From: Escherichia coli
GTDB lineage: Bacteria > Pseudomonadota > Gammaproteobacteria > Enterobacterales > Enterobacteriaceae
Reading direction: 5' to 3' (one strand)
Length of the DNA stretch: 64,000 bases
Assembly: GCF_024502345.1 (NCBI RefSeq)
Contig: NZ_JALDNN010000001.1
This document shows positions 53,468 to 53,739 of the stretch, piece by piece; the stretch's first letter is position 1, and each line of letters opens with the position of its first letter. The notes under the pieces are model-generated. The model saw only the letters and a program-made list of their open reading frames with translations. It ran no database searches and had not been told where the DNA came from. The position numbers and the translations under genes are program-made.

Positions 53468-53613
53468 TGTTATCCCTCTGAAGTTCGTTTTTTACCATTT
53501 AGCCATAGTAAAAACATGAATTGTTTGATTTCGCGCATATTCGCTCATAATTCGAAAGTGAAACGTGATTTCATGCGTCATTTTGAACATTTTGTAAATC
53601 TTATTTAATAATG

Positions 53614-53629
53614 TGTGCGGCAATTCACA
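53614..53629. promoter_or_regulatory. CRP (cAMP receptor protein) binding site in the glpA-glpT divergent region
   Basis: TGTGC-ggcaat-TCACA matches the CRP consensus TGTGA-N6-TCACA at 9 of 10 half-site positions; about 110 bp upstream of the glpT ATG. Confidence 0.7.
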
Positions 53630-53739
53630 TTTAATTTATGAATGTTTTCTTAACATCGCGGCAACTCAAGAAACGGCAGGTTCTCTCACTGAATCAGGCT
53701 GTTAATCATAAATAAGACCACGGGCCACGGAGGCTATCA

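Follow-up and report, generated by a model that had tools for sequence, protein, structure and literature searches.

The 272-bp gap between glpA and glpT, at 53468-53739 of the window (the whole 64-kb stretch of Escherichia coli DNA that was analysed), is the well-studied glpTQ-glpACB control region, and the CRP-like motif flagged in it by a first-pass annotation is the published glpT CRP activator site. The region very probably consists of two back-to-back activator-dependent promoters, one served by CRP (glpT) and one by FNR (glpA), with repression by GlpR. The first-pass observation is confirmed and its interpretation is supported, the CRP site and the FNR site in E. coli being already known from published footprints. 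For E. coli nothing in this is new; the cross-genus comparison maps both promoters cleanly.

Identity of the locus

The gene glpA occupies 51839-53467 on the minus strand (542 aa) and glpT occupies 53740-55098 on the plus strand (452 aa), in both the ORF list and the RefSeq annotation. The gap is 100% identical to that of E. coli K-12 MG1655, whose record gives the gene order glpQ-glpT / glpA-glpB-glpC, and megablast returns the region, annotated with glpA and glpT, from 5,419 of 5,426 complete E. coli genomes. Annotation, flanking genes and the MG1655 match all show that the first-pass annotation was right to name this a divergent glpACB-glpTQ control region. Within the gap, an MG1655 coordinate is obtained by subtracting the window coordinate from 2406114. 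This conversion is valid for the gap only; the window as a whole is not MG1655, having indels outside the gap and a coordinate offset that differs by 85 bp at yfaX. An Rfam scan of 53300-53900 gave no sign of a riboswitch or small RNA, with a best match (E = 0.4) far under the gathering score. The glp regulon is textbook material, and the K-12 glpTQ-glpACB control region is said to have been studied by Larson et al. in 1992 and Yang et al. in 1997.

The CRP site and the glpT promoter

The cAMP-CRP site has the core TGTGC-ggcaat-TCACA at 53614-53629 (22-mer 53611-53632, centre 53621.5), which agrees with TGTGA-N6-TCACA at 9 of 10 positions and with the full consensus at 14 of 22. The first-pass annotation had given TGTGC-N6-TCACA with exact coordinates. 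Its distance of 'about 110 bp' from the glpT start codon is acceptable, as 111 bp lie between the 3' edge of the core and the A of the ATG (53740), and 118.5 bp between the centre and the ATG. In place of curated matrices, consensus-mismatch scans with shuffles were used for CRP, FNR and GlpR. By this measure, CRP cores with at most one mismatch are not enriched in the 64-kb window (3 found, 1.74 expected), and a shuffled copy of the 272-bp gap would contain one with a probability of about 0.01. Cores with one mismatch also occur elsewhere in the window. One, TTTGATGCGCTTCACA at 43746-43761, sits between yfaY and yfaX, 57 bp before the 260-aa yfaX ORF (a rhmR-type regulator), and its left half is also FNR-like. 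Another, TGTGAGGCTTTTAACA at 25357-25372, falls in the short stretch between elaB and menF, 14 bp before the start of the 431-aa menF ORF.

Direct evidence for CRP binding comes from Kurabayashi et al. 2017 (PMC5352689), whose footprints cover the 300 bp preceding the glpT ATG; their forward primer, tcacttgattgcgagtcgcg, begins at window position 53439. In their DNase I footprint, cAMP-CRP shields 25 bp including AATGTGTGCGGCAATTCACATT, which is 53610-53631 of the window, and gel shift agrees; the protected DNA thus covers the exact sequence, at the place claimed in the first-pass annotation. The protected region is numbered -30 to -52 and overlaps the '-35 box TCACAT', and crp and cyaA mutants have glpT promoter activity below detection (PMC5352689). 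In genomic SELEX, glpA and glpT are both CRP targets, and the pair is listed among divergent promoters with multiple CRP sites. The coordinate in a Crp ChIP-exo supplement corresponds to the glpQ end of the operon and not to a transcription start.

For comparative evidence, a GlpT scan of species-representative genomes yielded 80 loci across Enterobacterales, with glpA divergent from glpT in about 50, and the gap was aligned from 24 species of Enterobacteriaceae. Against a whole-gap mean conservation of 73%, the two CRP half-sites are 96% conserved and the spacer between them 65%, a contrast that is the pattern of a bound site. The spacer differs even within E. coli, reading GGCAAT here and GTTAAT in another locus (L002). 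Downstream of the proximal CRP site, 27 of 27 anchored loci from several families have an 18-nt non-conserved gap followed by a -10-type hexamer, and the CRP centre is 29.5 nt from the start of that hexamer in every one of them. The hexamers are of the type TAnnAT (TAACAT, TACTAT, TACCAT, TAGCAT, TACAAT and others), two variants ending in CT. Of 79 Enterobacterales loci, 50 have a CRP core with at most two mismatches together with TAnnnT at the exact offset, where shuffles predict 0.26; the loci are related and not independent samples.

From this geometry and conservation, the glpT -10 hexamer is predicted to be TAACAT at 53651-53656 on the plus strand. The glpT transcription start, back-calculated, would fall at 53661-53663 on the same strand: the published numbering (-30 to -52 and -123 to -136; PMC5352689) places +1 at 53661, and a -10 element spanning -12 to -7 with CRP at -41.5 places it at 53663, an A. 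The CRP centre accordingly stands at -41.5 if +1 is 53663, at -39.5 if it is 53661, and at -39.5 to -41 by the published numbering. The glpT promoter thus appears to have Class II CRP geometry, with its site near -41.5. A generic sigma-70 scan misses both real promoters and reports TTGAAC/AATAAT at 53583-53612 instead, an outcome to be expected where promoters depend on activators.

The FNR site and the glpA promoter

The FNR site is TTGAT-ttcg-CGCAT at 53525-53538 (centre 53531.5), a 7 of 10 match to the core. The CRP site is 90 bp away, and relative to the predicted glpA start the FNR site stands at -41.5. The footprint of FNR(D154A) spans 70 bp, begins 32 bp upstream of the CRP site and contains TTGAT-TTCG-CGCAT at -123 to -136, which is 53525-53538 of the window; binding was also seen by gel shift, and FNR bound upstream enhances glpT expression (PMC5352689). 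The score of the E. coli site is near chance level, since the 64-kb window holds 326 matches to TTGAT-N4-ATCAA with three mismatches. The first-pass annotation, which had been unable to place an FNR site confidently, was therefore right as far as sequence alone goes, and it is the footprint and the cross-genus alignment that put the site at 53525-53538. In the 24-species alignment TGTTTGAT is invariant or almost so. The orthologous positions in other genera have one or two mismatches; for instance, the 14-mer reads TTGATaaggAACAA or TTGATaaagAGCAA (one mismatch) in Yersinia, Serratia, Dickeya, Pectobacterium, Brenneria, Providencia, Moellerella, Edwardsiella and Limnobaculum.

On the glpA strand, the FNR 14-mer is followed in 31 anchored loci by a fixed 19-nt gap and then by TG(G) plus CTAAAT or a near variant. 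In the window this extended -10 element is TGG-CTAAAT at 53497-53505 (minus strand), where CATTTAGCCA is invariant in the 24-species alignment. From the conserved -10 element and an FNR centre at -41.5, we infer a glpA transcription start at 53490 on the minus strand, which would give a leader of 23 nt (53490 to the ATG at 53467) and set the predicted glpA and glpT starts 173 bp apart. Such an arrangement suggests Class II activation of glpA by FNR, by way of the extended -10 element. In the FNR ChIP-chip data of Myers et al. 2013 (Table S7), no glpT/glpA peak was called except in the hns/stpA mutant (0.374 vs 0.431), which implies that in vivo occupancy by FNR in glucose medium is weak or masked. 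The best GlpR-like 20-mer of the gap, ATTGTTTGATTTCGCGCATA (53520-53539, five mismatches), coincides with the FNR site, which hints that GlpR and FNR may compete at the glpA promoter.

Candidate GlpR operators

GlpR operators were sought with the half-site consensus WATGTTCGWT, which reportedly comes from work of the Larson laboratory, and with a 20-bp palindrome. The procedure was validated on glpD, whose operator TATGTTCGATAACGAACATT was recovered with no mismatches; tandem sites upstream of glpF were recovered too. The best 20-mers of the glpA-glpT gap are at 53520-53539, 53480-53499 and 53572-53591 (five, six and seven mismatches, respectively), and half-sites with at most two mismatches are at 53480-53489, 53520-53529 and 53582-53591. 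Three such half-sites against 1.26 in shuffles (p ~0.13) are not significant alone, and in scans of the gap for tandem pairs no pair stands out. All three half-sites lie within conserved blocks. A further 20-mer candidate with six mismatches lies inside glpA, at 51952-51971.

The candidate half-site gaaGTTCGtttt (AAACGAAC on the glpA strand) at 53480-53491, plus strand, covers about +2 to +9 of glpA and has two mismatches to WATGTTCGWT; GTTCGTTTT, at the predicted glpA start, is kept across Enterobacteriaceae. On the minus strand at 53582-53591, AATGTTCAAA is a candidate with two mismatches, and TGAACATT within it (53584-53591) is about 80% conserved. Both regions had been singled out in the first-pass annotation, which proposed several tgttcg/cgaaca-like half-sites as possible GlpR operators and gave as examples ttttgaacatttt (53581-53593) and gaagttcgtttt (53480-53491). 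Both strings rank with the three best matches in the gap, both are conserved, and we consider them reasonable candidates, but the number of half-sites in the gap is not above chance. Between them, at 53536-53557, are the TTCG-centred repeats atATTCGct and taaTTCGAAa, which may be tandem GlpR half-sites upstream of the glpA -35 region. They match the consensus weakly, with at least three mismatches. Their TTCG (53541-53544), TTCGAA (53552-53557) and CG dinucleotides are conserved, and their counterpart in distant genera is AACGAAC..AACGAAA, also given as AACGAAC..AAAACGAAA.

Conservation, more than the consensus scans, makes GlpR binding somewhere within 53480-53593 likely. Multiple operators reportedly give GlpR control of both operons, as the title of the 1992 paper by Larson and colleagues is said to announce, and that study and the one of Yang and colleagues in 1997 are said to have found protection by purified GlpR and derepression by glycerol-3-phosphate. 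A full-text literature search for the operator strings found only PMC5352689. According to secondary sources, glpT is repressed by GlpR, and the known GlpR-regulated operons have 4-8 GlpR sites apiece. According to the Reg-Seq paper, 9 of the 17 GlpR sites in RegulonDB deviate from the consensus at 9 or more of 22 positions, a degeneracy that the weak GlpR matches in the gap fit.

Other elements in the gap

A degenerate CRP-like element, CGTGA-tttcat-GCGTC, occupies 53564-53579 (centre 53571.5), at about -91.5 for glpT and -81.5 for glpA. Its GTGA and TGCG are more than 90% conserved in the 24-species alignment, and the same position reads TGTGA-N6-GCTCA or GCGCA (two mismatches) in Klebsiella, Raoultella, Entomohabitans and Buttiauxella. 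A second CRP site may lie here, degenerate in E. coli. Nearer to glpA, NsrR ChIP-seq in strain CFT073 found a weak peak 41 bp upstream of the gene, for which ACGTTTCACTT and AACATGAATTG are candidate motifs; NO stress lowers the expression of glpA (PMC5320621).

In the 77-nt glpT leader, the ribosome-binding block GGCCACGGAGGCT (53723-53735, plus strand) is invariant in nearly all 24 species, and the rest of the leader is 51% conserved. Conservation of the block reaches 5' of GGAGG, and distant genera read CCATCGGAGGC. Also in the leader, at 53692-53704 on the plus strand, is the IHF-consensus-like sequence AATCAGgctgTTA, one mismatch from WATCAANNNNTTR. Matches of this quality are at chance level (53 found vs 51.8 expected in the 64-kb window), and this one is conserved within Escherichia only. 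Repression of glpT is reported, in the 1997 work of Yang et al., to depend on the glpA-side operators and IHF.

Comparison across Enterobacterales

The spacing of the CRP and FNR sites differs between families. Where it is long, at 151-153 bp, an additional near-consensus CRP site lies 60 bp from FNR, e.g. TGTGATCAAAGTCACA; the equivalent position in E. coli holds the degenerate CGTGA-N6-GCGTC (53564-53579). Many genera also have a GlpR-type operator at about +3 of glpT, its centre lying 44-45 bp downstream of that of the proximal CRP site. This operator is GCTCGTTATGGAACATA, with four mismatches, in Yersinia, Serratia and Brenneria, and takes the form of variants with six or seven mismatches in Dickeya, Cedecea, Buttiauxella, Atlantibacter and Edwardsiella; the loci with a GlpR-type operator over the predicted glpT start are L050, L057, L058, L076, L066, L068, L031, L034, L033, L054, L012 and L037. 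It was not found in Escherichia, Citrobacter, Klebsiella, Raoultella or Enterobacter, where the corresponding stretch (53657-53680 of the window) has at least ten mismatches.

Most Enterobacterales have a TCATAAAnnTGTAACA box adjoining the proximal CRP site (loci L005-L011, L017-L028, L031, L047, L050 and L058, among others), which reads TGTCATAAATCTGTAACAAT in Citrobacter and TTCATAAAAGTGTAACAAT in Serratia. In its place Escherichia has tgtaaatcttatttaata (53594-53611). The box could be a weak GlpR half-site (GTAACA vs CGAACA), a contact for the polymerase alpha subunit, or the site of another regulator.

A near-consensus FNR site, an extra CRP site, the 151-153 bp spacing and an operator over the glpT start are thus traits of most other Enterobacterales that are absent or weakened in Escherichia. 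We tentatively suggest, at somewhat less than even chances, that the layout of Escherichia, Citrobacter, Klebsiella and Enterobacter is derived and compacted, and that Escherichia is left without a glpT-proximal operator and with weakened FNR and middle CRP sites. If true, compaction would account in evolutionary terms for the need to repress E. coli glpT through the glpA operators, 'at a distance'. The TCATAAAnnTGTAACA box, in addition, may be the site of some factor. The evolutionary point is a modest one, possibly covered by earlier comparative genomics.

A model of divergent control and its alternatives

The mechanism that we favour starts from the CRP site at glpT, which overlaps the -35 position and would recruit RNA polymerase in the manner of Class II activation; recruitment over the -35 position would make glpTQ dependent on cAMP-CRP. 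At 53525-53538, about 41.5 bp upstream of the predicted start at 53490, FNR would activate glpACB anaerobically by way of TGG-CTAAAT, and from the same position it boosts glpT as well. The conserved TTCG/CGAAC-type repeats at 53480-53593 are most likely GlpR operators, from which GlpR would block the glpA promoter and the activators until released by glycerol-3-phosphate.

A different role for the CRP site would be to serve mainly glpACB, as a distal upstream activator site of the glpA promoter. Recognition of glpA as a CRP target by SELEX would suit this role, as would the multiple CRP sites reported in the gap, whose individual roles are not established, and the helical phase in which the CRP and FNR sites stand at 90 bp. 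The site would then have to act from about -131.5 relative to the predicted glpA start, however, and its distance to the FNR site and glpA promoter shifts between families, from 89-91 bp in Enterobacteriaceae to 151-153 bp in Yersiniaceae, Pectobacteriaceae, Morganellaceae and Hafniaceae, against a constant spacing to the glpT -10 element. This constancy on one side and variation on the other favour glpT as the primary target, and published data link the site to glpT expression (PMC5352689); a main role at glpA is thus improbable. That the motif is a palindrome which arose by chance in AT-rich intergenic DNA and regulates nothing can be dismissed with near certainty. The window-wide count of such cores, close to the chance rate (3 vs 1.74), would be in keeping with chance, but the probability of finding one in the gap is about 0.01, the geometry is fixed in 50 of 79 loci, and the published footprint together with the conservation of half-sites over spacer refutes the idea.

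Instead of serving as GlpR operators, the conserved repeats at 53536-53593 could be bound by other proteins: a second CRP dimer, for which the CGTGA-N6-GCGTC element at 53564-53579 offers a place; FNR over an extended stretch, as its 70-bp footprint covers about 53507-53576; NsrR, given the ChIP-seq peak 41 bp upstream of glpA in CFT073; or H-NS, given that hns/stpA deletion unmasks FNR binding. The weak match of the repeats to the GlpR consensus points the same way, although it loses force in view of the high degeneracy of known GlpR sites (9 of 17 off at 9 or more of 22 positions), and in distant genera the aligned stretch, AACGAAC..AACGAAA, is a clear GlpR-type half-site. Citing papers attribute to Larson 1992 a multi-operator control of both operons by GlpR. 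We consider it rather unlikely that the repeats belong to other proteins in place of GlpR, and the two kinds of binder may coexist, not being mutually exclusive.

In practical terms, expression of glpT sets fosfomycin uptake, and the CRP/FNR region underlies cAMP-dependent and anaerobic changes in susceptibility. The repressor-site arrangement seems to differ between enterobacterial families, and this could be relevant to extrapolations from E. coli to Yersinia, Serratia or Klebsiella, both for glp regulation and for the control of fosfomycin uptake.

Comparison with known systems

The GlpR operators of glpD and glpFK have TTCG/CGAAC-cored 10-bp half-sites at 10-11 bp spacing, and the glpA/glpT candidates resemble them in kind but match far less well, with five to seven mismatches in the best 20-mers. 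Class II FNR promoters have TTGAT-N4-ATCAA near -41.5. The predicted glpA promoter is like them in its perfect TTGAT half and in the fixed distance to an extended -10 element; it differs in that the promoter-distal half is degenerate in Escherichia and Citrobacter (ATGCG on the glpA strand; 7 of 10 overall), whereas most other genera score 9 of 10.

In Class II CRP promoters, of which galP1 is the textbook case, the site lies near -41.5 and overlaps the -35 region. The glpT promoter shares with them a two-fold symmetric site of the TGTGA-N6-TCACA type centred 29.5 nt from the start of the -10 element, the lack of a usable -35 element at 17 bp spacing, and strict dependence on CRP. Unlike them, it shares a divergent region with an FNR site and probable repressor operators, and it receives extra stimulation from FNR bound about 90 bp upstream. 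With the K-12 glpTQ-glpACB control region of Kurabayashi et al. 2017 (PMC5352689) there is no difference within the interval: the DNA is the same, and the published CRP and FNR motif strings recur verbatim at 53610-53631 and 53525-53538.
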